In this document: piece by piece, positions 2,465 to 20,738 of the stretch
Position numbering within the stretch: position 1 is the first letter of the stretch
Layout of the letters: every line of letters begins with the position of its first letter
NCBI GenBank assembly: GCA_023474425.1
Contig: JAMCXX010000001.1
Coordinates: 1-55,480 of the forward strand
Direction of reading: 5' to 3'
DNA: 55,480 nucleotides
Origin: Patescibacteria group bacterium
GTDB lineage: Bacteria > Patescibacteriota > WWE3 > JAMCXX01
Position numbers and translations under genes: made by a program
Notes under the pieces: model-generated
Seen by the model: only the letters and a program-made list of their open reading frames with translations
Told to the model about the DNA's origin: nothing
Databases searched by the model: none

Positions 2465-2535
2465 GTTTAAACGAGCAACACCGAGAGTAAAATTCCTCCA
2501 ACACCAACAAAGCTACATGCGGACTACTTCCATAC

Positions 2536-2578
2536 CGTCATTCTGGCTTGACCCGCTTAGCGGGTCTTGTCCAGAATC
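2536..2578. repeat. Palindromic repeat copy 1 (orientation CGTCATTCTGG...CCAGAATC)
   Basis: 43 nt. Outer arms ATTCTGG/CCAGAAT, inner arms GACCCGC/GCGGGTC. Its reverse complement matches 10561-10603 at 41/43 positions by hand alignment. The last base overlaps the GIY-YIG stop codon. Confidence 0.85.
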
Positions 2579-2868
2579 TAACCCATTAATCCGTCCGCCA
2601 GATCCTTAAATTTCGGGTTTAGTTTTGAAATCAAGTTTATCTTTTCGTCTCTGTTTAAATCCTTGATTTGTTTTTCTCGAATAATCGCCTGCTCGATTGT
2701 TTCAAAGCTTTCGTAGTAAACCAATTTGTGGAGGTTATATTTTGAAGTAAAGCCGGCGACGAGATTATTTTTGTGTTCGTGGACACGGCGTAGCAGATTG
2801 TTGGTAACTCCGGTATAAATGGTTGGCCTTTCGTTGACCATTATATAGACGAAACCTCCTTTAATCAT
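2578..2868 (-). CDS. Small stand-alone GIY-YIG nuclease family protein
   Basis: 96-aa ORF with ATG start. FVYIM...IYTGVTNNLLRRVHEHK fits the GIY/YIG strands plus the conserved Arg and His-Glu block. Confidence 0.8.
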   Translation of the reverse strand: MIKGGFVYIMVNERPTIYTGVTNNLLRRVHEHKNNLVAGFTSKYNLHKLVYYESFETIEQAIIREKQIKDLNRDEKINLISKLNPKFKDLADGLMG

Positions 2869-2884
2869 AAAAGAATGCCGGCTT

Positions 2885-2917
2885 GATTCTGGATGCGCTT
2901 TGCTTACCAGAATGACG
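2885..2917. repeat. Palindromic repeat copy 2 (orientation GATTCTGG...CCAGAATGACG)
   Basis: 33 nt with arms GATTCTGG / CCAGAATGACG. Lies 16 nt upstream of the GIY-YIG start, inverted relative to copy 1. Confidence 0.8.
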
Positions 2918-2945
2918 AAGATACCTTATCAGTGTTAGATTGCCG

Positions 2946-3350
2946 TTACGGGTGACTAACAATTTCAAGTTTCATTTTTTCCGGGTCCTCAAAGAAGACT
3001 GCGTAATAATCCTTGCTGTATTGAGGAAAAGGTTTAGGCGTCTCGTAGAGAACTCCTATATTGTTCGGTTTCAAAAACTCTCTGTAGAAGTTATCGACCT
3101 CCTCTTTCGATCTAACTTTGAAGGCAATGTGATTGAGTCCAACTCGACGACGGTGATAGCCGTCGTTAATATGGTCTTTCGGCGCCTGCTCGAACCAAAT
3201 GCTCGTATCTTTGTTTACGAAGGCAAAACCCCAGTTCCTTTTATTGAAGCATTCGCTATATCCCAAAAGTTCTAATAGCGGTTTATAGAATTTGTAGGAT
3301 ACTTCAGGGTTTGTTACATATAGGTAAAGATGGCTAATAGAAGTTTCCAT
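2946..3350 (-). CDS. VOC (glyoxalase/bleomycin-resistance/dioxygenase) family protein
   Basis: 134-aa ORF with ATG start. LNHIAFKV and YAVFFEDPEKMKLEIV blocks are typical of the paired beta-alpha-beta-beta-beta VOC fold. Confidence 0.75.
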   Translation of the reverse strand: METSISHLYLYVTNPEVSYKFYKPLLELLGYSECFNKRNWGFAFVNKDTSIWFEQAPKDHINDGYHRRRVGLNHIAFKVRSKEEVDNFYREFLKPNNIGVLYETPKPFPQYSKDYYAVFFEDPEKMKLEIVSHP

Positions 3351-3430: not shown

Positions 3431-5410
3431 TTAAGCAGTCACTATTAAATTCTTTAGCTTTTCTGACTCCTCCTTGGCTTTTTTAAGAGCGAATTTAAAA
3501 TTGAAAGTGATGTTTTTTTTGTTTTGTTTCTTAAGTTCGTCGTTTTCAAAAATGCCAACAAATTTAATTTTTGTACTCGGGTCCATTTCGTTTCTCAATC
3601 TGTTGAGCAGTTTGCCGGCTTCCGCTCTCGCATCCACTTCGAAGGTTTTATCTTCCGCAACTAGGTTTTCAATACTTGTTTTAACTCCAGAAGCCGGGTT
3701 AGGTTTAGCCTGTTTCAAAAGCTCCTGCGTGTAAAAACAGGCATGACACCAGGTTCCTTCGAGATTAAAGTTGCTTAGGAGTGCCTGCTTAAGCTCTCCT
3801 ACCTCACCGATTTCTTCGCCGTTTGTTTTTAGAATAGCGCCCTTTTGCTCTTTATAAATAACAAGCTTTTCTTTTACCCAAACCGGCTCAAAATTACCCA
3901 GCTCTTTAAGAAAAGTCTCCACAAAAGATTTAAAAGAGAGAAAATCTAAGTTTGCACTAAAAGCAATTTTTCGTGTTTCTTTGTATTTTTCCAACCCCCG
4001 CCCCGTTCCGGTTTGGGTGTAGCTTTTACCAACCTCAAAGATTTTAATAGTTGTTACACCGTGCTTTTGATAACTCAAACCGTATTTTAGCTGTCCCGAC
4101 AGCGTTTCCGGTCTCATTATATTTAGTTCCTCGTTCCATGAATTTTGCAGGCGGATAATTTTATTTTCGTTAAAAAGTCCGGTTTTTATTGTGTCTTTTT
4201 CGTCAATTATCTGTTGCGAAACTACTTCATTGAACCCAAGCTTGGTAAGGGTGTCCCGAGCTAAGTCTTCTAAGTCTCTTTCCGGAAATTCGAGTTTCTT
4301 GGGAGCCGGTCGGTTGGGAAGAAAGAGAGGGATTTTTTCGTAGGTTCTAATTCTTAAAACCTCCTCAATTAAGTCGGCTTCACCCACAACATCGGTTCTA
4401 AAATAAGGAACTTCCACGGTTATGTTAAGCGGCGTCTCGTTAAGGATTTTGAATTCCAGGGATTTAAGTATCTCTTTAGCTTCCGTTGGTTTAACCTCTT
4501 CACCGGCAATTGTGTTGAGCGCACTAAAGGTTAGGTTTAATACAGTCGGCCCCAGTTCTTCCGGGTAATAGTCGAAGCCCGGTGTTACAGGTGACACGTC
4601 CAAAATATCTTTAAAAAGTTCCAGCGAGCGGGCTATGGCCACTTCGCAAAATTTGGGGTGCAGGTATTTGCCAAGTCTTTGAGAGGTTTCGTTTTTGATT
4701 TTCAAGCGCAGTGCACTGCGTCTGGCGGTTGGCTGGTCGTATAACCCCGCCTCTAATAGAATGTTTTGGGTGGTTGGGGCAATACCCGAAGACCTTCCGC
4801 CAATAGCTGTAGTTAAGGTCAGCGGCTTTTTGGAGTCGGCGGCCACAAGGTCGTTCTCGTCCAATTCCAATTTAGTGCCTTCAAAAGTTACCAGCGACTC
4901 CCCTCTCGTAGCCGCGCGGAGATTTATTTCGTCCACCTTATCCAAATCAAAGGCATGCAGGGGCATACCCAGCTCCACCATAACAAAGTTGGTAACATCC
5001 ACCACATTGTTTAAAGGTTCAATGCCATACGAGGCAAGTCTTTTGGCCAGCCATTTGGGTGAGGGTGTAACTTTAACATTACGCAAAACTACCGCCGTCC
5101 AGCGTAGAACCTTTTTGGAAGAGATAGTAATTTTTGGTATAAATTTATTGTTATCCGAGGCCGGCAGCGGTGCGGTCAGCGGAAATTTTAAAATTTTACC
5201 GGTAAGGGCGGCCAAATCGCGGGCAATGCCCACAATACCCATAATGTCCGCGCGATTGCCGCGGTCCTCTAGATCCAAAATTTTATCGCCTTCCTCACCG
5301 AAGATTGGTTTGTCTAAAGCATGACCGGCCAAGGTTAAAATATTGGCTACTTCCTTGGGGCTTTTATCTATTTCCAGGTAGTCTTTAAGCCAGCCGTAAG
5401 GCACGCGCAT
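3431..5410 (-). CDS. pheT: Phenylalanine--tRNA ligase beta subunit
   Basis: The ORF track starts at a TTG (5428). I prefer the ATG at 5410, which gives MRVPYGWLKDYL, the conserved PheT N-terminus. Lies immediately downstream of pheS. Confidence 0.93.
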   Translation of the reverse strand: MRVPYGWLKDYLEIDKSPKEVANILTLAGHALDKPIFGEEGDKILDLEDRGNRADIMGIVGIARDLAALTGKILKFPLTAPLPASDNNKFIPKITISSKKVLRWTAVVLRNVKVTPSPKWLAKRLASYGIEPLNNVVDVTNFVMVELGMPLHAFDLDKVDEINLRAATRGESLVTFEGTKLELDENDLVAADSKKPLTLTTAIGGRSSGIAPTTQNILLEAGLYDQPTARRSALRLKIKNETSQRLGKYLHPKFCEVAIARSLELFKDILDVSPVTPGFDYYPEELGPTVLNLTFSALNTIAGEEVKPTEAKEILKSLEFKILNETPLNITVEVPYFRTDVVGEADLIEEVLRIRTYEKIPLFLPNRPAPKKLEFPERDLEDLARDTLTKLGFNEVVSQQIIDEKDTIKTGLFNENKIIRLQNSWNEELNIMRPETLSGQLKYGLSYQKHGVTTIKIFEVGKSYTQTGTGRGLEKYKETRKIAFSANLDFLSFKSFVETFLKELGNFEPVWVKEKLVIYKEQKGAILKTNGEEIGEVGELKQALLSNFNLEGTWCHACFYTQELLKQAKPNPASGVKTSIENLVAEDKTFEVDARAEAGKLLNRLRNEMDPSTKIKFVGIFENDELKKQNKKNITFNFKFALKKAKEESEKLKNLIVTA

Positions 5411-5460
5411 AAATATATAAAAATCCAATCTTGCGAATATTACGAATGGGTATGCCTTTT

Positions 5461-5513
5461 CGAATCTTACTAATGTTACGAACGATCTTTATAAGTAATA
5501 TTCGTAAGATTCG
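5461..5513. repeat. Inverted repeat in the pheS-pheT spacer
   Basis: Perfect 10-bp arms CGAATCTTAC (5461-5470) and GTAAGATTCG (5504-5513), 33 nt apart. The surrounding spacer is full of TACGAA/TTCGTA-type half sites. Confidence 0.6.
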
Positions 5514-5550
5514 TATCTTTGTGTATTTGCAATATTAGTAAGATTAGCTT

Positions 5551-6576
5551 TTATTGTGTGAAAACTAAATTACCGGAGTGCAAATCACGAATATCCGTTA
5601 TCCCAAACTTTGTCATAATGATTCGGTCCAAGCCCATGCCGAAGGCGAAACCGGACCAAACTTTCCAATCAATGCCGGACTTGGCCAGGAGGTTTCGGTG
5701 AATAATGCCTGAGCCCAAGATTTCTATCCATCCGCGGTCTTTGCAGATCCGGCAGCCCGTACCCGAGCAAAAGCGGCAGAGAATGTCCATGCCGGCGCCC
5801 GGCTCAACTTCGGGATAATATTTGGTGCGAAAGCGTGTCTTAACTTTGTCACCGTACAAAAATTTGGCAAATTCGTTAAGAGTCGCTTTAAGATTGGCCA
5901 GACTTACGTCTTTATCTACCAAGACTCCCTGATACTGGTAAAAAATGGCGTGGTTGCTTTGATTAATAATTTCGTTGCGAAAGGAGACCCCGGGAACTAC
6001 AAAACGCAGCGGCGGCTTGTGGGAGCTTAAAATTCTCGTTTCAACACTCGAAGTGTGGGTTCGCAAAAGTACTTCCGGAGATTCAATGTAGATAGTGTCC
6101 TGCAAGTCGCGGGCCGGGTGGTCTTTGGGAAGGTTTGTTTTTTCAAAGTTATACTCATCGGTTTCAATTTCCGGGCCTTCGGCAACGCTGTAGCCATGGT
6201 AGGTAAAAAACGCGTTCATTTGACGAATGACTTGAGTATCGGGGGCCATGTGACCTATAGGAGCTTTGGGAACAGGCAGACTGACGTCGAACCACTCCCC
6301 CTCTTCGTCATAATTTCTGTGAATTCTCTCTTCGGCTCCTTTTATAGCGGAGTTAAGCGTTTCCTTGGCCGCATTAATTTCCTGTCCATAGGATTTTTTT
6401 TCCGATTCAGTAAGGTTTTTAAGGCCTTGGGTTAGTCGGTTGAGGAGGCTTTTTTTACCGGTAATATATTCAAGTTTGTAGTCGTTTAATTCCTTGAGAT
6501 TGCTGGATAAAGAGATTTTTTGCTCCGCGGTTTTTATTAATTCTTGAAGGTCATCCAAACTTGCAACTTTAGCCAT
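5551..6576 (-). CDS. pheS: Phenylalanine--tRNA ligase alpha subunit
   Basis: 341 aa with ATG start. HPARDLQDT and FRNE class II motifs, C-terminal GFAFGMGLDR block. Confidence 0.95.
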   Translation of the reverse strand: MAKVASLDDLQELIKTAEQKISLSSNLKELNDYKLEYITGKKSLLNRLTQGLKNLTESEKKSYGQEINAAKETLNSAIKGAEERIHRNYDEEGEWFDVSLPVPKAPIGHMAPDTQVIRQMNAFFTYHGYSVAEGPEIETDEYNFEKTNLPKDHPARDLQDTIYIESPEVLLRTHTSSVETRILSSHKPPLRFVVPGVSFRNEIINQSNHAIFYQYQGVLVDKDVSLANLKATLNEFAKFLYGDKVKTRFRTKYYPEVEPGAGMDILCRFCSGTGCRICKDRGWIEILGSGIIHRNLLAKSGIDWKVWSGFAFGMGLDRIIMTKFGITDIRDLHSGNLVFTQ

Positions 6577-6611
6577 TGCTTATATTTTAGCATATAAAAA
6601 CGGCTCTTTGA

Positions 6612-6953
6612 TTACTTGCTTTGGGAAACAAGCTGCTCAAAAATTTGCGGGTATTTGAGGGCCAGCTCTGCCATGATTTTCCTGTCCAGTTTTATTTTTT
6701 TGTCACCCAGGTTTTTTAGGAATTGACTATATTTAACTCCGAAAGGCTCCAAGGCGGCGTTAATCCGCATAATCCAAAGACGGCGAAAGTTTGACTTCCG
6801 GTCTTTGCGTCCGGCAAAAGCGTACTGGCCGGCATGCAAAACAGCCTCTTGCGCGCGCCGGAACAATTTGGAGCGGGCGCCAAAGTAACCTTTAGCCCGC
6901 TTAAGCACTTTCTTGTGTTTTCTTCTCTGAACAAATCCCCCTTTTACTCTCAT
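6612..6953 (-). CDS. rplT: 50S ribosomal protein L20
   Basis: 113 aa. MRVKGG...RRKHKKVLKRAKGY...R is a typical L20 N-terminus. Sits in the operon position after rpmI. Confidence 0.95.
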   Translation of the reverse strand: MRVKGGFVQRRKHKKVLKRAKGYFGARSKLFRRAQEAVLHAGQYAFAGRKDRKSNFRRLWIMRINAALEPFGVKYSQFLKNLGDKKIKLDRKIMAELALKYPQIFEQLVSQSK

Positions 6954-7033
6954 AACAATAAGGTTAGAAGGTTAGCAGTCCTTACGTCGGAAATATACAT
7001 GGCTTCCGTTCTAAGACCTTTTTGCCTTCAGAC

Positions 7034-7228
7034 CTAAAGGTTGAGCAGCCGCTTAACCCTCTTTAAATCCTGGTTTTTGACCAACCGGTTTTTCTCTTTG
7101 CGCTTGTGTCCGGAAGTTGTCTCGTGTCGCCGTAAATGAGAAACCGATCCCGGGCGGCGGATTATCTTACCTCTCTTGGTAACCCTGAATCTTTTAACGG
7201 CTGTCTTGTGAATTTTTAGTTTCGGCAT
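7034..7228 (-). CDS. rpmI: 50S ribosomal protein L35
   Basis: 64 aa. MPKLKIHKTAVKRFRVTKRGK is a typical L35 sequence. Lies between infC and rplT. Confidence 0.92.
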   Translation of the reverse strand: MPKLKIHKTAVKRFRVTKRGKIIRRPGSVSHLRRHETTSGHKRKEKNRLVKNQDLKRVKRLLNL

Positions 7229-7310
7229 AATCTTTAATTAGGTCAGAAGTTCTTAGGTCCGAAGGTTAGTAGCTCAGAAGCTCGGACCTACTGCCTTTTG
7301 CCTTCGTGCC

Positions 7311-7820
7311 TTATTTTGGTGCTAGAGTGGCCGCCAGGAGGTTTCGCCCTTGCCATTTAGGTGGTGAAACTAATTTACCGGCGGGTTCCAAAATTTTTAA
7401 GGCGTCCACCATTTTCTTTTGGGCCAGTTCCGGATGAGTAGTCAGCCGCCCGCGAATAAGAACGTTAACCCGCAACTGGTCGCCGTTTTTTAAAAACTCT
7501 GTTCCACGGCGGACTTTATTTTCAAAATCGTTTTGAGCAATAATCGGGCTCAAGCGAATTTCCTTAAGTTTTGAATGCGTCTTAGACTTTTTTTGTTCCT
7601 TTTTGGTTTCCTGATAGACAAACTTCTTGAAATCCGTAATCTTAACCACCGGTGGTTTGGCGTTTGGGCCAACCTCAACTAAATCCAGTTTCTGGTCTAA
7701 GGCCCTTTTTATGGCTTCGTGAGTAGGGATAACTTCGTTTGTCCCCTCCCCGACTAACCTTACTTCCGCGGCCGTGATACGGTGGTTAATTCTGAACCTT
7801 CTTTCTATCTCAAAACTCAT
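7311..7820 (-). CDS. infC: Translation initiation factor IF-3
   Basis: 169 aa with ATG start. INHRITAAEVRLVGEG...DLVEV in the N-domain, C-domain with KEIRLSP..I..D. Conserved position after thrS. Confidence 0.92.
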   Translation of the reverse strand: MSFEIERRFRINHRITAAEVRLVGEGTNEVIPTHEAIKRALDQKLDLVEVGPNAKPPVVKITDFKKFVYQETKKEQKKSKTHSKLKEIRLSPIIAQNDFENKVRRGTEFLKNGDQLRVNVLIRGRLTTHPELAQKKMVDALKILEPAGKLVSPPKWQGRNLLAATLAPK

Positions 7821-7836
7821 TAATGATGAGTGGAAT

Positions 7837-9624
7837 TTACCACAAATCCAGCTCCCTGGTCAAGATTCTGTTTTTAGCGGCCTGAATAAAGTCGTCCAGG
7901 CTCATTTGTCCCTCATCTCTTTCGTCTCTAAGCCTTAGTGATATTTTATTACTTTCCTGCTCCTTTTGTCCTATAATTATCATGTAAGGAATTTTTTGCA
8001 GCTGGGCGTCCCGGATTTTGGCTCCCAGTTTTTCGTTGCGGTCGTCCAGTCCACTTCGCAAGACCTGGTCTTGTAGTCGTTGATTTACCGCCGTTGCATA
8101 GTCCAGAACTTTATCCGTAACGGGTATTACTTTGACTTGTATTGGTGAAAGCCAAACCGGGAAAGCTCCGGCAAAGTGTTCTATGAGAATGGAAAGGTAT
8201 CTTTCAACGGAGCCCATAATAGCCGCGTGAATCATAATAATCCGCTCATCTTTACCCTCCTCGCCAACGCAGGTAAGGTCAAATCTTTCCGGCATATTGT
8301 AGTCAAGCTGAATGGTAGCTAGCTGCCACTCCCGTCCCAGCGAATCGCGGGACATAAAGTCAAGTTTAGGCCCGTAAAAGGCGGCCTCACCGGGCGCTTC
8401 AAAAAATTCAATGCCCTTACTTTTGGCGGTGTCTATTAAAATACTTTCCGCATCCTTCCACGAATTTTCGTTGCCCAGGTATTTTTCCATATGCGCGGAA
8501 TCGTGGAGCGAAACTCTAAGTTTCAGCTCAAAGCCGGCGGCGGAGTAAAATCTTTCCACGATATCCCAGATTTTGTATATCTCCTCTTTTATTTGGGATT
8601 TTCGGCAAAACACGTGAGCGTCATCCTGCGTAATACAGCGTACCCGGGAAAGTCCGGAAAGCTCTCCCGTTTGTTCGTCACGGTAAACCATGGTGGTATT
8701 GGCATACCTTTGGGGAAGATCGCGATAGCTGCGTTTTACGTGATTGTATATTTGCGTGTGGTGAGGGCAGTTCATAGGTTTCATGGCAAAAACGTGTCCT
8801 TCACGGGTATTAATTTTAAAAAGCTCATCTTCAAACTTGTCCCAATGCCCGCTTTTTTCATAGAGGTCTTTTTTGGTGATGTGTGGAATTTCTACTTTTT
8901 GATAGCCGTGTTCGCGCCGCAGTTCCCAAACGAAATTGTCCAGCTGGTCCCGCAGAATCGTGCCTTTGGGCGTCCACAAAGGTAGTCCAGCTCCAACTAG
9001 GTCGGAGAAGGTGAAAAGGTCGAGCTCGACACCTAATTTCTTGTGATCCCGCTTTTTGGATTCTTCTAAAAGGTGCAAATACTCGTCCAGTTCTTTTTGG
9101 CTCTCGAAAGCCGTGCCGTAAATGCGGGTGAGCATTTTGTTTTTTTCGTCCCCGTGCCAATAAGCGCCGGCGACAGTCAGAAGTTTAAAGGCTTTGACCT
9201 TTCCCGTTGAGGAAACATGAGGCCCGCTGCAAAGGTCTAAATCAACGTTTCCTATTTTGTAAATTGATACTTTTTCACGTCTTTGTTCGATCTGATCCAG
9301 CCAGTCGAGTTTATAGGGGTTATTTTTGAAAATTTCGCTCGCCTTTATTACATCAACAAACTCCTGTTTTACTGGCAGATCGGCCTCGATAAGTTTTTTC
9401 ATTTCCTTTTCTATTTTGGGGAAATCCCTTTCACTTATCTTTTCATCAAGATCAAAGTCAAAGTAGAATCCTTCGTCCGTAGCCGGGCCCATGGCCTTTT
9501 TAAGTTTGGGATAAAGATTTTGCATGGCCGTGTGCAGCACGTGTTCAGCCGTATGGCGCAATGCCAAAAGTTCCCTTTCTTTTGCCGGCAGCTTTTCCAT
9601 TTTCTCGTCCAGTATTTTCGACAT
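7837..9624 (-). CDS. thrS: Threonine--tRNA ligase (apparently lacking the N-terminal TGS domain)
   Basis: 595 aa with ATG start. Editing-domain HxxxH (HTAEHVLH), class II catalytic core (RVRCITQDDAHVF) and a C-terminal anticodon-binding domain. The protein begins directly in the editing domain. Confidence 0.95.
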   Translation of the reverse strand: MSKILDEKMEKLPAKERELLALRHTAEHVLHTAMQNLYPKLKKAMGPATDEGFYFDFDLDEKISERDFPKIEKEMKKLIEADLPVKQEFVDVIKASEIFKNNPYKLDWLDQIEQRREKVSIYKIGNVDLDLCSGPHVSSTGKVKAFKLLTVAGAYWHGDEKNKMLTRIYGTAFESQKELDEYLHLLEESKKRDHKKLGVELDLFTFSDLVGAGLPLWTPKGTILRDQLDNFVWELRREHGYQKVEIPHITKKDLYEKSGHWDKFEDELFKINTREGHVFAMKPMNCPHHTQIYNHVKRSYRDLPQRYANTTMVYRDEQTGELSGLSRVRCITQDDAHVFCRKSQIKEEIYKIWDIVERFYSAAGFELKLRVSLHDSAHMEKYLGNENSWKDAESILIDTAKSKGIEFFEAPGEAAFYGPKLDFMSRDSLGREWQLATIQLDYNMPERFDLTCVGEEGKDERIIMIHAAIMGSVERYLSILIEHFAGAFPVWLSPIQVKVIPVTDKVLDYATAVNQRLQDQVLRSGLDDRNEKLGAKIRDAQLQKIPYMIIIGQKEQESNKISLRLRDERDEGQMSLDDFIQAAKNRILTRELDLW

Positions 9625-9857
9625 ATCCGTTTATAAGGTTTGGATTGGAATCCGTTATTCGGGAGCCCGCCAAGCATGACGGACTCGGAAATTAAGTCCC
9701 ACAAAAACACAGAATCGCCCTTAGAAGTATTTGAGGGCCTATCAGGATTGATAGACGGTTCCACCTCAATTACCGCCAAGGGCGATATCTCATTGATGCT
9801 CATTTCGAAGAGCCATCGTTAGGGCTCCGCGGTTGGTAGCCGCCTCAATACCCTACT
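9625..9857 (-). promoter_or_regulatory. T-box riboswitch leader of thrS (Thr specifier ACC)
   Basis: On the minus strand, the T-box sequence AAUUGAGGUGGAACCGUC lies at 9754-9771. The antiterminator has helix UUGAGG/CCUCAA, a 7-nt bulge UGGAACC (consensus UGGNACC) and inner helix GUCUAUC/GAUAGGC. Upstream is a short Stem I with hairpin GCGG-CUACCAA-CCGC (9829-9843) presenting ACC followed by A. Confidence 0.75.
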
Positions 9858-9862
9858 CTTTT

Positions 9863-9891
9863 ATTATCTCTCCAATTTGATAAAATGTCAA
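9863..9891 (-). promoter_or_regulatory. Sigma70-type promoter for the thrS leader
   Basis: Minus strand TTGACA (9891-9886), a 17-nt spacer, then GATAAT (9868-9863). Lies immediately upstream of the T-box leader. Confidence 0.7.
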
Positions 9892-9896
9892 TATTA

Positions 9897-9940
9897 GCGG
9901 GCTTGTAGCTCAGTTGGCTAGACCTGCCTGCCAATGCCTT
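9897..9940 (+). pseudogene. 5' fragment of a tRNA-like sequence (acceptor plus D arm only)
   Basis: GCGGGCTTGTAGCTCAGTTGGCTAGA is a good acceptor-5' strand plus D stem-loop (TAGC/GCTA). The following sequence forms no anticodon or T arm, and no 3' acceptor strand is found. Confidence 0.4.
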
Positions 9941-9945
9941 GTTTT

Positions 9946-10022
9946 GGGTGGTTAGCTCAGATGGTTAGAGCGCCACGTTGACATCGTGGAGGTCATAGGT
10001 TCGAGTCCTATACCGCCCACCA
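9946..10022 (+). tRNA. tRNA-Val (anticodon GAC), CCA encoded
   Basis: Hand-folded cloverleaf. Acceptor GGGTGGT/ACCGCCC, anticodon loop TTGACAT, T-loop TTCGAGT. 77 nt. Confidence 0.9.
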
Positions 10023-10032
10023 AGGAGACAAT

Positions 10033-10461
10033 ATGAGTTTACTGCACAGATTTTCCTCATTATTTAACGAATACGCCAACAGGCTTATTAGTAGCCACCT
10101 TTTCCTTTTGGTCCACATCGCTTTTATTACTTTCTGGCTTGTTTTAAAGCTAGATATTACCCTCTTGGCTCTGGTGCTTTCGGTGGAAGGGGTAACCATT
10201 TGGACGGTAGTTCTAAAATCGACCAATAAAATACGGGAGGGTCAGGAGAAAAAGGATAGGTTTGAAAACAAAAGGTTTAGGGAATTTTTGGAGGAGGATA
10301 TAAAATCCACCGAGCAGAATCTTAAGGTCTCGCGGGAGATATTTCTGAAACTCCAGGAGAATGAATACCGGCTGGAGGAGCTTAAAAGTCAAGTGGAAGA
10401 GCTATCAAAATCAGTCTCGGTGACTATTCCGGGACAGAACAGTGAAAGTAGGAGCGAGTAA
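10033..10461 (+). CDS. Membrane protein, DUF1003-like (two TM helices plus C-terminal coiled coil)
   Basis: 142 aa with ATG start. Two hydrophobic helices followed by a charged helical tail. The family call is from memory only. Confidence 0.45.
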   Translation: MSLLHRFSSLFNEYANRLISSHLFLLVHIAFITFWLVLKLDITLLALVLSVEGVTIWTVVLKSTNKIREGQEKKDRFENKRFREFLEEDIKSTEQNLKVSREIFLKLQENEYRLEELKSQVEELSKSVSVTIPGQNSESRSE

Positions 10462-13581: not shown

Positions 13582-13701
13582 ATTTAATTTTACCCCGAAC
13601 CTGACCGGCCTAAGGCCGGTCGAAGGATGGTGCTGTAATTATACGCTTCGCGCGAACCTACTTTGAGCGGAACTGACCACCTCCGCTTCGCTTCGGCGGA
13701 C

Positions 13702-14205
13702 TTAATTATTAGTTCTTATCCTTACTGCCTCCTCAACCGCGTCAGAAATGTATCTTGAAATCCAGTCGTATCTTTCTTTGCTGTTACTTCCGCTCGGATT
13801 GTAACATTTTACTATCGCAGATAATTTTTTACCAGTGTCGCCGTAGGATATGTAATCAAACGGATTGGCTCCAGATTCGGTAATGTACCCCTCGTTATTT
13901 TTCAATCCATGTATACGAATACCAACTACACCCAAACTAGCGTTCCATGCTTCTATAATCTCGTGATTTATCCATTTACGATTCGCTGTTTCCTTTCCAA
14001 CAAGCACAACCGCGCATGTTCGATATTTCATTTGTTCCTTTATCCATTTTTTGATCGCCTCGTGGCCACCGCGCACAACCGTTTCCCAATCATTATCCGG
14101 TGCCGGTTTGTTTCCCTCAATTACTCCAATACTACGAACAGTTGCTGCTCGCCAGCAATCGGGTTTGTAGTGAAAACTATAAAAAACTTGTCTTCTTGTT
14201 GCCAT
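13702..14205 (-). CDS. ThsB-like TIR-domain protein (DUF1863/Thoeris ThsB clade)
   Basis: The ORF track starts at 14298. I prefer the ATG at 14205 (167 aa), 2 nt after the upstream stop codon. Blocks VFYSFHY, VLVGKETANRKWINHEI and GANPFDYISY resemble ThsB as I remember it, and the candidate catalytic Glu is retained. Confidence 0.72.
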   Translation of the reverse strand: MATRRQVFYSFHYKPDCWRAATVRSIGVIEGNKPAPDNDWETVVRGGHEAIKKWIKEQMKYRTCAVVLVGKETANRKWINHEIIEAWNASLGVVGIRIHGLKNNEGYITESGANPFDYISYGDTGKKLSAIVKCYNPSGSNSKERYDWISRYISDAVEEAVRIRTNN

Positions 14206-14207
14206 AT

Positions 14208-14612
14208 TTATTTGATGAGTTGTAGAACTACAAACATTGCTAATGCAAGCGGTACATAAAACCAAAGCAAGGTCGCAGACAACATTGAGCCAAGCCAAGT
14301 ATTACGCCAAATATCTTTGTACTTTTTTGTGTTCATCGAAAAATCTACTTTCTGCTCGTCCAGTTTTCTTACATCGTCGTATAAACAGCAAAATCTCCGT
14401 TCTTGTGAGAGAAAATATCCGTCCAAAATCCAAAAAATAAGAAGCAGAAAGTAAGCGAGCAAAATATAGCCGCCATACGAACCCTTTGCGGCGGAAAGTG
14501 CAAATAGTCCGGTAATTAAGGTTATTGTCCAGCCACGCAGGAAAAATAAATTTCCGGCCATTCGATTTATAACCCCCTGTATTAACTCAAGATGTTTACG
14601 CTTATTTTCCAT
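14208..14612 (-). CDS. Small three-TM membrane protein, unknown family
   Basis: 134 aa with ATG start. Hydrophobic segments at about aa 22-42, 47-67 and 105-131, with a charged ~35-aa loop between TM2 and TM3. Tightly coupled to the TIR gene. Confidence 0.6.
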   Translation of the reverse strand: MENKRKHLELIQGVINRMAGNLFFLRGWTITLITGLFALSAAKGSYGGYILLAYFLLLIFWILDGYFLSQERRFCCLYDDVRKLDEQKVDFSMNTKKYKDIWRNTWLGSMLSATLLWFYVPLALAMFVVLQLIK

Positions 14613-14622
14613 TGCTACAAAA

Positions 14623-15462
14623 TTATAGTTTTCCTTCCTCTAACTTTTCCGGCGGCGGTTCGATACCAAGAAATTCTCGGTAGATTCGATTTTTATAGTC
14701 TGCCCCAATCTCATTTATCGCTTCGATAAATGCTTTATATGTCCCAAGCCCGCCGATTTTCTCCCAAAACTCATCACCAATTAAAACTACTTCATCGTTT
14801 TTCATATCGAACCACCGAGCCGGAAAAGCCCAAGAGTAATTCTCTCGTTTCCCAAAAGGATTGTAGGGAAGCGCGTAAAAAGCACCGTCAACTTGCAATG
14901 GCTCCATACTATAAAGCTTGAGCATTTTCTCTTTACTTACCTTTGTTTGGTCGCTATTCGGCAAAGGTGCCTTCAACTCAAAAGCATATTTCTTTTTGTT
15001 TTTTTTATCTTCCGCATATACATCAGATATGACCGTAACAGGAATAAGTTTTGTGTTTTTGCCCTCCAAAATATATTTCAATTCATTGTCCCAATCCGGC
15101 TTAATGCGTTTCTTATCTTTTATTCCGTGTTCAAGGTTATTTAGCACTTCTTGGATCCTACGCAATCTTTCGGCATTTACTTTGCCAGTTATTGTCTTTC
15201 CTTTTTCTCCGTGCCCAAGACCGTTATTTGCCGCAACTATCGCTAACTTTTCCCAAACCCCGCCGAATGGGGTAACAAAACGGCGTTCAAAATGAGAGCC
15301 CTTAAATATTTCGTCCGGTACTAAAGCCGCATAAAGCGGCTTCTTGGCTCTGTGTTCTTCTTTCACAAAAGGTTCTTCTACCAAAACCTTATTCATAACC
15401 CTATCCATCATCATTTTTATGACAGATTGGATTGCCTTTTTCATTTCTTGTTTCTCGGTCAT
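14623..15462 (-). CDS. Type II restriction endonuclease (PD-(D/E)xK; TdeIII-like by recollection)
   Basis: 279 aa. The ATG overlaps the methyltransferase stop (ATGA). Candidate catalytic motif SDVY-x12-FELK (D...ExK). The family name is unverified. Confidence 0.6.
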   Translation of the reverse strand: MTEKQEMKKAIQSVIKMMMDRVMNKVLVEEPFVKEEHRAKKPLYAALVPDEIFKGSHFERRFVTPFGGVWEKLAIVAANNGLGHGEKGKTITGKVNAERLRRIQEVLNNLEHGIKDKKRIKPDWDNELKYILEGKNTKLIPVTVISDVYAEDKKNKKKYAFELKAPLPNSDQTKVSKEKMLKLYSMEPLQVDGAFYALPYNPFGKRENYSWAFPARWFDMKNDEVVLIGDEFWEKIGGLGTYKAFIEAINEIGADYKNRIYREFLGIEPPPEKLEEGKL

Positions 15463-16652
15463 ATTTTTTGCCAGATTAAAATACTTTCGTAAAATGCACC
15501 CTCACGTCTTCCAGTCCGGCGGTTCACATGACGTTCAACACGTCCAATTTCCTTAAACCCCGCATCGTCTGCTTTGTAAAGTCCATATTTGTCATTTACA
15601 ACAATGAGAGCCAGACCTTTTGGCGTCATATATTTACGAGTATGGAGTAAAACATCATTTATGCCTTTGATATAGTCCTGTTTTGCTTGTTGTGATTGTC
15701 CATTTTTTGCAGGACCAATTTCCCTCGTCTCGTTATTTTTTAGACCAAGTAATTCGTAAGCGTATTTATGTTGTTCGTGGTAATCAATCAAACCAATATA
15801 GGGAGGTGAAGTGAAAACCATATCAATACCGTTTGGTAACTCAACCTCGCGCGAATCCGCATGGTTTACGATTACTTTTGCTTTCGTCTTAATTTTAGAA
15901 AATTCTTTTATGCGATCTAACGTATCAATCGTGTAACGCGACAAGAATTTATAAGCTTCTTCAACCGGCTGACATGTTCGGTTATGTTTGTAGCACTGAT
16001 AGGGTTTTGTTTGCGGCTCCTTTGGAAAATCCAGATCGTAGTGTGTAACAAGCCGCGCTGAACGCGCCGAACGAGATAAAACAACTTTCAATAAATCTTG
16101 ATAAGTGTAATCCTTAATAAGCCGTAGATAGCATAGAAGCTCTTTTTGTGTGTTTGGCGCGAACCATTTTTGTATATACTCATTTTTCGTTGAAAATACC
16201 TTGTTTACCTTTTCGTCATTAGAAAACTTACTTTTATAGGTATTGAGACGATTCAAAATTTCGTAAACTTCCTCTTCAAGTCTTGGAATATCATAATCAT
16301 CAGTCTTAACTTTTGAAAGCAGGATATTAAAGGCCGAAATATCAGTGCCGATTGAATCTATGCCGAGCGCGTTTGCCTCAACTAAAGTTGTCCCGCTTCC
16401 AGCGAACGGGTCATAAACAAGGGTTGGCTCGTACTTACGTAAAAATATTTCTACAAGTTGCGGAATAAATTTACCAAGATAGGGATGTAAGCGGTGAACG
16501 TGTTTTGTTCTTTGGTATTCGGGCAAATCGCGCTCGCGCCAATTCAAATTCAAAGATTCAAGTGGAGTCTCCGGCTTTACGCTGGCAAAATCCGTAAGCG
16601 GATTTTGCTTATACTGCTGGGCTATTTTTTGAGCAATAGTATTATCGTACAC
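15459..16652 (-). CDS. DNA methyltransferase (N4-cytosine or N6-adenine; SPPY motif)
   Basis: 397 aa with GTG start. AdoMet motif I DPFAGSGTT (aa 81-89) precedes catalytic motif IV TSPPY (aa 281-285). HPYLGKFIPQL block typical of the N6_N4 MTase family. Confidence 0.85.
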   Translation of the reverse strand: MYDNTIAQKIAQQYKQNPLTDFASVKPETPLESLNLNWRERDLPEYQRTKHVHRLHPYLGKFIPQLVEIFLRKYEPTLVYDPFAGSGTTLVEANALGIDSIGTDISAFNILLSKVKTDDYDIPRLEEEVYEILNRLNTYKSKFSNDEKVNKVFSTKNEYIQKWFAPNTQKELLCYLRLIKDYTYQDLLKVVLSRSARSARLVTHYDLDFPKEPQTKPYQCYKHNRTCQPVEEAYKFLSRYTIDTLDRIKEFSKIKTKAKVIVNHADSREVELPNGIDMVFTSPPYIGLIDYHEQHKYAYELLGLKNNETREIGPAKNGQSQQAKQDYIKGINDVLLHTRKYMTPKGLALIVVNDKYGLYKADDAGFKEIGRVERHVNRRTGRREGAFYESILIWQKI

Positions 16653-16654
16653 AA

Positions 16655-16793
16655 TTATTTTTTCAAAAGGTCATCAACTGACGCTTCGAGAGCTTTCGCA
16701 ATCCGTTGGACTGCTTCAATGATAGGATTAGGACTATCGTCAAGTTCTATTTTAACAACCGTATTAAGTGACAAATCAGCAAGTTTAGAGAGT
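16655..16793 (-). pseudogene. Truncated XRE-family HTH (R-M controller-like) remnant
   Basis: My own translation gives ...QLSKLADLSLNTVVKIELDDSPNPIIEAVQRIAKALEASVDDLLKK*. This matches helices 2-5 of an HTH_3 domain. There is no ATG or GTG start, and the frame runs straight into the tRNA-Leu 3' end. The stop lies 2 nt before the MTase start. Confidence 0.5.
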
Positions 16794-16884
16794 TGGTGCT
16801 GAGGAGAGGACTTGAACCTCCACCCCCGATTTTACGGAGACAGGCCCCTCAAGCCTGCGCGTCTGCCAATTCCGCCACCTCAGC
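16794..16884 (-). tRNA. tRNA-Leu (anticodon GAG), CCA encoded
   Basis: 91-nt class II tRNA. Acceptor GCTGAGG/CCTCAGC, anticodon loop TTGAGGG, long variable arm. Confidence 0.9.
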
Positions 16885-19465: not shown

Positions 19466-20041
19466 TCAGAGGGGTTTGTATTCCTTGTTTTTTTCCATCT
19501 CTTTGCCCAAAAGATCGCGCAGGTAAACGGCCCGGGGCACTCTTTTGACCCGCGAAATCCAGTCTAAATAATCGTTTATTTCCGGAGAAATAAAGAAGTT
19601 GAACCTAATTGGCGCACTGCCTTTAAGATTTGCAATTTCTTGCGTTAACACCTCCTCAATATTCTCTAGCGTGTATTTCACAATACGCACGGTGTTTGTT
19701 GGCACGGCCTTTAAAATTTGTGGAACAAGAGATCCGCTCACCTGTAAGACCAGAACGGGTTTGTTTTTTTCCAGGGCGATAGAAATCTCGTGCCCGATAC
19801 CGATGGTCGGTTGGGAAACTTCCGCAACGACTAAATCGGCAGAGGAGATATTTTTAAGCGTTCGTTCGTAGTACTTGACTAATTCTTTGTCCGAGGCGTC
19901 TCTTACTTGGTTGTACTCTGTATTGAGCACATGATCGCTGACCAGTTTATAGCCAAGACCGGTAAGCACGTCGATTATTCTTTCGTAGTTCTTCTGATAT
20001 TTAGCCTTACCCGACAGCGAAGCTGCAAAGTATATTTTCAT
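19466..20041 (-). CDS. DNPH1/nucleoside 2-deoxyribosyltransferase-like protein with C-terminal RHH-like tail
   Basis: 191 aa with ATG start. KIYFAASLSG at the N-terminus and ADLVVAEVSQPTIGIGHEISIAL resemble DNPH1 (Rcl) ADVVVAEVTQPSLGVGYELG, including the catalytic Glu. Residues ~145-180 (RFNFFISPEINDYLDWISRVKRVPRAVYLRDLL) look like a beta-strand/helix/helix RHH unit. Confidence 0.65.
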   Translation of the reverse strand: MKIYFAASLSGKAKYQKNYERIIDVLTGLGYKLVSDHVLNTEYNQVRDASDKELVKYYERTLKNISSADLVVAEVSQPTIGIGHEISIALEKNKPVLVLQVSGSLVPQILKAVPTNTVRIVKYTLENIEEVLTQEIANLKGSAPIRFNFFISPEINDYLDWISRVKRVPRAVYLRDLLGKEMEKNKEYKPL

Positions 20042-20060
20042 AAGCTTAATTAGTTTAGTT

Positions 20061-20696
20061 TTAATTAGCAGAATTTACAATCTTAGAATACAAATCAGAT
20101 AGGCCGTTTTGTTCCAGCAACTCTTTTAAATAATCGTTGCTAAAAGTATGATTGTTCTTCAGCTGTCCGCAATCGACTAAGTCTTTATTGATAATTCTAG
20201 ACCCTACTCTAAAAGTGCGTCGGGTAATACTTTTGCATATAAAGACCAGCTCTGGGCGCGCAATTTTTATTCTAAATCCGTCTATTTTAAAGAGAATCGC
20301 ATCGCGTATGGCTTTTTCGTTGTAAGGCATTCGTATAATACGTCCGTTGTTGAGTTTGTATACCCAATCGGTTGATATGTGAACTTCGACACCACGAACA
20401 CTAGTTCTTAGATAGCTGGTAATGGGTGTTACATCACCAAATTTTGATACAAACTTAACCTGACATAAACCGTCAAATTCTTTGTTCTTGTTAAGGATAT
20501 ACTCGAGTTCGTTTAACTCAACTCCGTTGACGATAATGTCAATGTCTGTTATTGGTCTTTGCGGATTCCCGTAATAAAAAACAGATACGCCCGAGACTAC
20601 CATCCAATCCAGACTATTTTTTCTAAAATATTCATTCAGAAATCTAAGCGTATTTATGTATTTTATTCCGATTGTTTGTTTTTCTGTTTTCTTCAT
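20061..20696 (-). CDS. Pol-beta-fold nucleotidyltransferase-like protein
   Basis: The ORF track starts at TTG 20723. I prefer the ATG at 20696 (211 aa). VVSGVSVFYYGNPQRPITDIDIIV fits the G[SG]-x(9-14)-DxD NTase signature. The gene is AT-rich and lies 19 nt upstream of the DNPH1-like gene. Confidence 0.55.
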   Translation of the reverse strand: MKKTEKQTIGIKYINTLRFLNEYFRKNSLDWMVVSGVSVFYYGNPQRPITDIDIIVNGVELNELEYILNKNKEFDGLCQVKFVSKFGDVTPITSYLRTSVRGVEVHISTDWVYKLNNGRIIRMPYNEKAIRDAILFKIDGFRIKIARPELVFICKSITRRTFRVGSRIINKDLVDCGQLKNNHTFSNDYLKELLEQNGLSDLYSKIVNSAN

Positions 20697-20712
20697 ATAG
20701 CAAAAACCAACC

Positions 20713-20738
20713 CAAAAAAGCAAACCTTACGGTTTGCT
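20713..20738 (-). terminator. Rho-independent terminator after the 20822-21523 gene
   Basis: Minus-strand stem AGCAAACC/GGTTTGCT (8 bp, 4-nt loop) followed by UUUUUUGGG. Confidence 0.6.

Follow-up and report, generated by a model that had tools for sequence, protein, structure and literature searches.

A defence islet behind tRNA-Leu(GAG) in a Patescibacteria contig as the probable eroded copy of a recombinase-less mobile cassette

Introduction

How does a compact array of defence genes come to lie directly behind a tRNA gene when no recombinase accompanies it? This question is raised by contig JAMCXX010000001.1 of an uncultivated Patescibacteria-like bacterium, of which a stretch of 55,480 nt (the window) was analysed, with coordinates given on its forward strand. 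The minus strand carries, in order, tRNA-Leu(GAG), the remnant of a helix-turn-helix (HTH) gene, a DNA methyltransferase (MTase), a TdeIII-family restriction endonuclease (REase), a protein with three transmembrane (TM) helices and a ThsB-type TIR protein. A preliminary description had taken this islet for what is left of an element that entered at the 3′ end of the tRNA and has no integrase. The point at which homology to other cassettes breaks off, a conserved right-end segment and the position of a short direct repeat support that reading more strongly than the first evidence did, and the best explanation of the whole is that 13628-16793 is probably a copy of a small mobile defence cassette without a recombinase of its own, now immobilised and eroded at its ends. 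The defence systems in the islet are of known kinds; new here are the cassette frame and the recurrent operonic coupling of restriction-modification (R-M) with a Thoeris-like module.

Results and discussion

The islet is tightly packed. From the tRNA side onward its genes are joined by 2 nt, a 4-nt overlap, 10 nt and 2 nt, and both the gene order and these junctions, as first described, are borne out by open reading frame (ORF) coordinates, ARAGORN and family searches. A spacer of 120 nt separates the stop side of the TIR gene from the gene of a 317-aa membrane protein. The islet is genuinely yet modestly AT-rich. While the G+C values first given for single 60-nt lines are exact (0.333, 0.367, 0.30 and 0.267 in the islet; 0.45, 0.483 and 0.467 in the backbone), they overstate the contrast, the islet as a whole having a G+C of 0.399 against a window mean of 0.449. 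The sliding-window and codon check that had been proposed places it below all but 0.2 % of equally sized windows (sd 0.020), and the lowest G+C at third codon positions (GC3) among the 46 ORFs of the window belongs to the islet genes and to an ORF at 20061-20723 (z -1.3 to -2.2).

Sequence comparison indicates that the islet genes are foreign. The four islet proteins are 86-96 % identical to those of cassettes in unrelated uncultivated bacteria, whereas the backbone proteins reach only 37-56 % identity with their nearest relatives. For the MTase, homologues of the same length (397 aa) at 80-93 % identity number more than 100 and are spread over Buchanan-, Davies- and Roizmanbacteria, Nitrospirae, Firmicutes and Elusimicrobia. 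Ancestral genes inherited vertically, with a low G+C due to gene function only, would fit a G+C drop of just about 5 points, which other segments of the window come near. This alternative is effectively refuted by nucleotide identities of 76-89 % to cassettes of unrelated phyla, against at most 56 % for backbone proteins, and by the absence of the islet from two relatives of the host (L111 and L113, discussed below).

The closest cassettes show what an intact copy looks like. By blastn, window 16792-14622 corresponds to positions 5859-8031 of locus L114 (82.7 % nt identity), and window 14612-13692 to positions 2361-3283 of locus L126 (89 %). In L114-L118, the R-M unit consists of a 66-aa HTH_3 gene, a 4-nt gap, the MTase, a 4-nt overlap, the REase and a gene for an OLD-family ATPase/TOPRIM protein, and variants of this unit occur in L119-L125. 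The closest TM/TIR loci with enough flank (L126, L127 and L128, from three different samples) share one five-gene array that encodes an HTH protein of 67 aa, another MTase (269 aa), another putative endonuclease (388 aa, with weak PD-(D/E)xK-type matches), a TM protein of 135 aa and a TIR protein of 167 aa; neighbouring genes are always 1-4 nt apart or overlap by 4 nt. The TM/TIR pair of the window is nearly identical to the pairs behind this different HTH-MTase-REase (HTH-M-R) cassette. The fusion of R-M and TM/TIR genes into one array, pointed out in the preliminary description, thus recurs, with another R-M pair. Among more distant TM/TIR pairs, some neighbour Type III or Type ISP R-M genes and some follow another large operon. 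The second module varies among loci and is therefore exchangeable, yet its placement at the tail of an HTH-M-R operon is a recurrent design.

Around these genes the family shares a set of non-coding modules: a palindrome of about 140 nt (P), a segment of about 80 nt (B), the promoter region and a terminal 57-nt segment (seg57), which retain 80-93 % nt identity across different genomic contexts. The frame P-B-promoter-HTH...B-P-seg57 is common to L114-L118 and L127; in L119-L125 the right-end modules are found, joined in L124 by part of B on the left. The seg57 segment closes the elements in L114, L116, L118, L119, L121, L124 and L127, and is contiguous with the P module in four other genome contexts. 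Inverted repeats enclose the five genes of L127 (96-174 against 3494-3416, 97.5 %, and a second pair). L114, on a Buchananbacteria contig, is complete: a tRNA-Lys(CTT) ending in CCCACCA and its perfect terminator hairpin are followed by the element (5352-10142), whose 350-nt inverted repeats are 78.6 % identical, and the distal border carries an exact 44-nt repeat of CCCACCA and the terminator hairpin. L125 is flanked by a 16-nt direct repeat. From these sequences, an intact relative appears to be built as a tRNA 3′ end, a direct repeat, a left inverted repeat of about 300 nt (P, B), the promoter, the HTH gene, the MTase, the REase, a variable second defence module, a right inverted repeat (B, P, seg57) and a direct repeat.

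Several further observations concern the ends of these relatives. The inverted repeats span 18-174 and 3416-3648 in L127, and 5310-5656 and 9862-10185 in L114; the contig ends of L126 are mutually reverse-complementary because of palindrome-rich inverted repeats of about 300 nt. In L125 (5440-5520; 10480-10545), a seg57-like end lies directly left of the left direct repeat (AAACTAGATACGAACT), an arrangement that suggests tandem accretion of cassettes at one site. In L115 and L116, the same flanking genes (HxlR, 112 aa, 374 aa) are found on opposite sides of the HTH-M-R-OLD cassette, possibly the outcome of inversion between the long terminal repeats. The element ends had no match among viral contigs. 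We also considered whether the palindromic ends are integron attC sites and rejected this, the flanks being inverted rather than direct and inspection finding no GTTRRRY-type core.

Measured against the intact frame, the left end of the islet is cut at the tRNA. The blastn homology starts at window 16792, equivalent to L114 5859, which is 63 nt into the 66-aa HTH gene and 1-2 nt past the CCA of the tRNA. The remnant comprises codons 22-66; the first 62-63 nt (21 codons) are gone, and what stands upstream instead is the tRNA. A usable start codon is lacking, the sole in-frame candidate being an internal TTG, and the remnant matches only the C-terminal two thirds of HTH-XRE proteins, weakly (capH 2.9e-4, RstR 3e-4). 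Compared with L114 it has four amino-acid changes and no frameshift, while the ratio of nonsynonymous to synonymous substitution rates (dN/dS) is 0.02-0.04 in all four full-length islet ORFs (0.02 for the MTase against L114, 0.03 for the REase). The HTH gene was therefore truncated recently, measured against the divergence from L114.

The right end is eroded as well, and retains its terminal segment. The B and P repeat modules are missing between the TIR stop codon and a seg57 remnant, whose alignment (13687-13630) scores 27 against 8.5 +/- 1.3 for shuffled sequences, about 14 sd above them. Such a sequence is found once in the window, where nothing else resembles it. The remnant ends in a perfect -10-like TATAAT (13643-13638) that faces the downstream membrane-protein gene. 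Beyond it, the window reads TATAAT, TA, CAGCACCA, TCCTTC and the hairpin GACCGGCC-TTA-GGCCGGTC; the right end of L114 reads TAGAAT, AT, CCCACCA (the tRNA-Lys end) and the terminator hairpin. The octamer CAGCACCA is also the last 8 nt of tRNA-Leu(GAG) (16801-16794), and its distal copy (13635-13628) starts 2 nt past TATAAT, just as the 44-nt tRNA-Lys repeat of L114 starts 2 nt past TAGAAT. Because it occupies the same position as the L114 repeat, we read the octamer as the distal, attR-like direct repeat of the islet.

The perfect hairpin that had been noticed beside the octamer is confirmed by sequence and fold as GACCGGCC-TAA-GGCCGGTC, and now lies in the leader of the membrane-protein gene. 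It is best read as the native trailer, or terminator, of tRNA-Leu(GAG), which the insertion would have displaced by 3.2 kb. This reading would also explain why the sequence resembles the trailer of another leucine tRNA: from the octamer copy onward, GCACCA followed by TCCTTCGA matches the 3′ end of tRNA-Leu(TAG), GCACCA followed by CCCTTCGA, at 13/14 nt in register (p ~0.003).

The islet could instead consist of foreign genes whose link to the tRNA is coincidental, brought in by illegitimate or homologous recombination in a variable region, with the octamer a chance match and seg57 a mere conserved promoter type. As a sequence the octamer does nothing to oppose this, since TGGTGCTG occurs at 16794, 13628 and 44471 and in reverse complement at 54762, four occurrences where about 1.7 are expected per window (estimated as 2 x 55480 / 4^8). 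Neither was a recombinase found, the region upstream of the membrane-protein gene differs in each relative, and a cut HTH gene is unlike the outcome of site-specific integration. Yet seg57 is joined to the P module in four other contexts and present once in the window, the octamer begins 2 nt past the -10-like hexamer at exactly the start point of the L114 repeat, the sequence after it resembles a tRNA-Leu trailer, and the orientation of the cassette relative to the tRNA is the same in the window and in L114. On these grounds a coincidental link seems decidedly improbable. The preliminary suggestion of an eroded att repeat therefore stands on position, homologous to the 44-nt repeat, and fails on sequence taken alone.

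Against the interpretation of the islet as an eroded mobile cassette, several points must be weighed. With only 8 nt, the octamer taken alone is at chance level; Smith-Waterman alignment of tRNA-Leu(GAG) to the spacer is likewise at chance (p = 0.27), Rfam detects no partial tRNA in the spacer, and the spacer sequence does not recur as a repeat within the window. Modules P and B and the promoter region have no match in the window, the whole left end being absent. No integrase, transposase or recombinase was found among the ORFs of 13582-16793 or inside the L114-L128 cassettes. A clean tRNA association is seen in L114 only: no left-hand repeat or tRNA was found in the sequence examined of L119 and L127, and the L125 repeat is not at a predicted tRNA.

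The relatives of the host found by comparison are distant. A trigger factor scan of two large contig collections (genome_contigs and metagenome_contigs) returned nothing above 40 % identity, and the 317-aa membrane protein has only two relatives in 5.8 billion proteins (L111 and L113, 37-38 % identity). L111 is the closest relative found, with a trigger factor 56 % identical. Both keep the synteny of the membrane-protein gene with tig (L111 also that of clpP and tRNA-Val) and both are without the islet; upstream of the membrane-protein gene, L111 carries a HicAB pair and two small ORFs, and L113 has a tRNA-Leu(GAG) at a distance of 70 nt, in divergent orientation. They are too distant and rearranged for an empty-site test. 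Exact-protein look-ups matched the same strain only. The sole near-identical contigs, from two mine-tailings metagenomes, bear the islet at even depth. Contigs of three mine-tailings runs aligned to the region gave no joint that skips the islet, and the joints reported in them are cross-matches among tRNA paralogues of other organisms. The comparison proposed in the preliminary description has thus yielded distant relatives lacking the islet and no strict empty site. Its notion of an insertion hot spot was overstated; what stands is that the content upstream of the membrane-protein gene differs in the two distant relatives.

With these reservations, we infer the following course for the mobile-cassette origin. 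The cassette would have integrated 7-8 nt inside the 3′ end of tRNA-Leu(GAG), shifting the tRNA trailer hairpin 3.2 kb downstream. Before insertion the junction would have run from ...CAGCACCA into TCCTTCGACCGGCC..., and the predicted empty site is the tRNA-Leu(GAG) 3′ end ...CCTCAGCACCA fused directly to TCCTTCGACCGGCCTTAGGCCGGTC. Two deletions would then have followed. One, of about 0.5 kb as estimated from the layout of L114, would have begun precisely at the tRNA CCA and taken away the left inverted repeat together with the promoter and the HTH gene up to codon 21; the other, between GTCCGCCGAA and GCGA..., would have cost the islet most of the right repeat, about 0.2 kb. The resulting features are listed in Table 1.

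Table 1 Features of the islet and its borders in the window.
Feature	Position	Strand	Basis
tRNA-Leu(GAG), CCA encoded	16794-16884	minus	ARAGORN; Rfam tRNA 51 bits
HTH-XRE controller remnant, 45 C-terminal codons and stop	16655-16792	minus	blastn to L114
Type II DNA methyltransferase, N6A/N4C class, 397 aa, intact	15459-16652	minus	PF01555, PADLOC MTase_II
Type II endonuclease, TdeIII/HinfI family, 279 aa, intact	14623-15462	minus	PF09520, PADLOC REase_II
ThsF-like 3-TM effector (PDC-M50A), 134 aa	14208-14612	minus	PADLOC PDC-M50A 5e-46
ThsB-type TIR protein (ThsB1/PDC-M50B), 167 aa	13702-14205	minus	PF08937, PADLOC
Right-end remnant (seg57)	13636-13692	minus	local alignment to L127 3641-3697
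Distal tRNA-Leu(GAG) 3′-end copy (CAGCACCA), attR-like direct repeat	13628-13635	minus	position relative to the L114 repeat
Perfect hairpin, 8-bp GC-rich stem, 3-nt loop	13603-13621	minus	sequence and fold
Flanking backbone membrane-protein gene, 317 aa	12628-13581	minus	syntenic with tig-clpP in relatives

The cargo comprises two independent modules, a Type II R-M pair and a type V Thoeris-like pair. The MTase matches PF01555 (6e-12) and PADLOC MTase_II (4.3e-93), and the REase matches PF09520 over its full length (8.3e-73, residues 8-253 of 279) and PADLOC REase_II (3.5e-41). REase length and the 4-nt overlap with the MTase gene are identical in L114-L125. The recognition site of TdeIII is GGNCC. 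In the window, this is the most depleted of the 16 XYNY′X′ palindromes (131 observed, 242 expected, z = -7), and GANTC is not depleted. Such depletion speaks indirectly for GGNCC as the probable specificity of the R-M pair, which would cut unmodified incoming DNA. Of the other palindromes of this form in the window, CTNAG, TCNGA and CCNGG are low too, and CGNCG and ATNAT are over-represented.

In its relatives the pair resembles the C-protein-regulated Type II R-M systems of the TdeIII/HinfI family, with HTH-XRE, MTase and REase genes in this order and 4-nt gaps or overlaps. Classical controller R-M systems have the C gene directly before R; the order here is HTH-M-R. In the window, moreover, the HTH gene is decapitated and its promoter lost, so regulation of the R-M pair must differ from that of C-protein systems.

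The second module pairs the two smallest full-length genes. The TM protein matches PADLOC PDC-M50A over residues 1-130 of 134, has hydrophobic stretches at 22-39, 44-69 and 109-134, and is predicted by AlphaFold2 as two long helices and a third (predicted local distance difference test score 96.6). Its family is large, with 3781 clusters at 50 % identity and homologues up to 96 % identical, and in the contexts examined a ThsB-type TIR gene always comes next after the TM gene. Among 95 diverse homologues, 19 match PF10028 (DUF2270) at E <= 1, all below threshold (best 1.4e-5), and 27 match DUF3278. The effector is likely to belong to DUF2270. We rejected a type VII Thoeris with a SLATT effector, as no SLATT domain appeared among the Pfam hits of the window protein or the 95 homologues at E <= 1 to 10.

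The TIR protein matches PF08937 (1.5e-24; gathering threshold 21.2), ThsB1 (1.2e-63) and PDC-M50B (2.7e-59, residues 4-165 of 167). In the PDB it finds 8wcf (4.6e-31) and the ThsB structures 9b7d and 6lhy (about 5e-16). Residue E82 in the motif WINHEI (W78-INH-E82-I) aligns with the glutamate of WV.YEI in 8wcf, which we take to be the catalytic residue of ThsB; E82 is accordingly the likely catalytic glutamate by alignment. Over 153 aa the protein is 76 % identical to IMG 2627254940, a member of TIR cluster 2661146773 that Table S1 of Yirmiya et al. (bioRxiv 10.64898/2025.12.03.692087) lists as 'DUF2270 - Type V'. In type V Thoeris, the ThsB TIR makes a signal upon infection (3′cADPR in the validated Bacillus thuringiensis case), and toxicity is caused by ThsF, a three-helix TM protein of DUF2270 for which a ring structure with positively charged pockets has been modelled (bioRxiv 10.64898/2025.12.03.692087). 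By this model, the TIR protein of the islet would sense infection and make an ADP-ribose-derived signal, which would trigger the oligomeric ThsF-like 3-TM protein, leading to membrane damage and abortive infection.

The pair agrees with type V Thoeris in forming a two-gene operon of a 3-TM protein of about 135-180 aa and a ThsB-type TIR, and a second TIR type found beside the TM family (L035) resembles, by eye, one of the type V TIR clusters (bioRxiv 10.64898/2025.12.03.692087). It differs in that the TM protein falls short of Pfam DUF2270, the TIR falls into a cluster other than those of the two validated systems, one that also contains type XI members, the host is uncultivated and Patescibacteria-like, and the pair is operonically appended to an R-M cassette. 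Two of these features count against the assignment: the TM protein has no Pfam hit, and cluster 2661146773 also includes type XI TIRs. The adjacent genes, 2 nt apart, also match both components of PADLOC PDC-M50 over their full length, a candidate system whose name was not found in the literature searched.

A different function can be imagined for the pair: the TIR protein would itself be an NAD-depleting toxin, which the TM protein would serve as sensor, anchor or antitoxin. In keeping with this, the pair might form an addiction module that stabilises the cassette. It does lie at the 3′ end of mobile R-M cassettes, and the TM protein lacks a recognised ligand-binding domain and has neither a Pfam hit nor a structural neighbour in the PDB (best E-value 2.4). 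We consider this improbable. The TIR is of the ThsB family and 76 % identical to TIRs catalogued with DUF2270 effectors, validated type V systems work by a TIR-made signal acting on a 3-TM effector (bioRxiv 10.64898/2025.12.03.692087), and fusion of the TM domain to a SLOG nucleotide sensor in one family member marks the TM domain as an effector.

Some other members of the TM family have unusual architectures or neighbours. In one homologue the 3-TM domain is fused to a SLOG cluster-2 domain (378 aa), and in another to an octameric 8xMP membrane protein domain (351 aa); these two homologues are P0259 and P0338. A more distant TM/TIR lineage has an additional, third gene ahead of the pair (L028 7236-7490; L029 7121-7402; L031 6539-6820; L032 1817-2098), which encodes a Gly-rich small membrane protein of 84-93 aa with a faint CrcB-like match. 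The 93-aa gene of L028 and L031 was considered as the missing HTH gene and rejected, as it proved to encode this small Gly-rich membrane protein.

With the promoter and controller of the cassette lost and the terminator of the tRNA moved away, the four intact genes are most likely expressed by read-through from the transcription unit of tRNA-Leu(CAG), the GT2/hydrolase gene and tRNA-Leu(GAG), which we infer to be the most economical route. The members of this upstream unit are spaced by only 8 and 15 nt, and no terminator-like site is predicted on the minus strand from 17200 to 12400, in keeping with the initial remark that none separates the tRNA from the array. At the other end, the seg57 segment may act as an outward promoter: in L127, the TAGAAT equivalent to the window's TATAAT lies 7 nt ahead of the ATG of the next gene.

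Loss of controller and promoter might, on the other hand, have left the R-M pair silent, which would count against a functional islet. In its strongest form this alternative makes the islet a dead remnant, in which promoter, operator and controller are lost and the R-M and Thoeris genes are unexpressed and simply not yet eroded. The promoter region and 21 HTH codons are indeed deleted, both ends of the element are eroded, and the low dN/dS reflects the entire divergence rather than the time after truncation. Four full-length ORFs with their native overlaps, the unbroken run from the upstream tRNA/GT2 unit into the array, and the even depth of the islet in both metagenomes that contain it argue otherwise. 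In addition, an REase without its MTase is selected against, and loss of both would leave scars, of which none are seen. We therefore regard a dead remnant as unlikely.

Read as an eroded mobile cassette, the islet has counterparts among two known classes of element. Cis-mobilisable elements (CIMEs) are integrase-less, att-flanked islets at tRNA 3′ ends. The cassettes resemble them in lying directly 3′ of a tRNA, with direct repeats of the tRNA end, no recombinase and apparent tandem accretion (L125); they differ in having imperfect, palindrome-rich terminal inverted repeats of about 300 nt and direct repeats of varying length (8, 16 and 44 nt). Non-autonomous transposons, such as elements resembling miniature inverted-repeat transposable elements (MITEs), have terminal inverted repeats. 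Here too the cassettes are similar, as long terminal inverted repeats enclose a transposase-less cargo and an inversion between L115 and L116 is possible. Unlike these transposons, they have flanking repeats that are long, variable and tRNA-derived rather than a short target duplication of fixed length, and their cargo is 3-5 kb of defence genes.

These comparisons allow a broader proposal, which we put forward tentatively and hold to be possible rather than probable. In it, Patescibacteria-like and other uncultivated bacteria would carry an undescribed family of recombinase-less mobile defence cassettes of 3-5 kb, with palindrome-rich terminal inverted repeats of about 300 nt, which would insert at tRNA 3′ ends between direct repeats and accrete in tandem. 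A fixed frame of promoter, HTH controller and right-end outward promoter would hold swapped cargo, namely Type II R-M pairs and abortive-infection modules (type V Thoeris, OLD nuclease). R-M and Thoeris would be transcriptionally coupled, and the present copy would have been captured by tRNA read-through after it lost its controller.

A conserved frame of this kind would move R-M, along with an exchangeable second defence module, among uncultivated bacteria that are only very distantly related. Should R-M be fused in one operon with a signalling, abortive system, the arrangement would provide a natural and testable case of layered defence under one promoter. The islet itself would illustrate domestication, its controller lost and the tRNA terminator moved to its far end, and it would extend type V Thoeris-like systems to Patescibacteria-like genomes. 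As a lesson in method, an 8-nt repeat that fails statistically can be a real att scar, given homologous intact elements.

Additional observations

The surroundings of the islet and some remote parts of the window have features of their own. In the window, a 1.5-kb GT2/alpha-beta-hydrolase fusion gene lies between tRNA-Leu(GAG) and tRNA-Leu(CAG); in L003 (8200-9945) the two tRNA genes are just 22 nt apart. In distant Paceibacterota-like relatives (L003, L037-L042), tig lies directly downstream of tRNA-Leu(TAG). Upstream of tRNA-Leu(TAG) in the window there is a second low-GC gene pair (19466-20723, minus strand). One ORF, of 220 aa, shows a weak AbiEii-like match and, at 0.356, the lowest G+C in the window; the other, of 191 aa, encodes a nucleoside 2-deoxyribosyltransferase/SLOG-like domain (PF05014, 1.4e-8); the pair may be a further acquired toxin-antitoxin or defence pair.

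Farther along, tRNA-Gly(GCC) at 37785-37868 (minus strand) is 84 nt long with an Rfam score of merely 37.6 bits, and a normal 75-nt tRNA-Gly(GCC) is present at 33927-34001. At the right end of the window (53000-55480), G+C climbs to 0.52-0.57, and the three ORFs there have the highest GC3 in the window (z +1.9 to +2.3).

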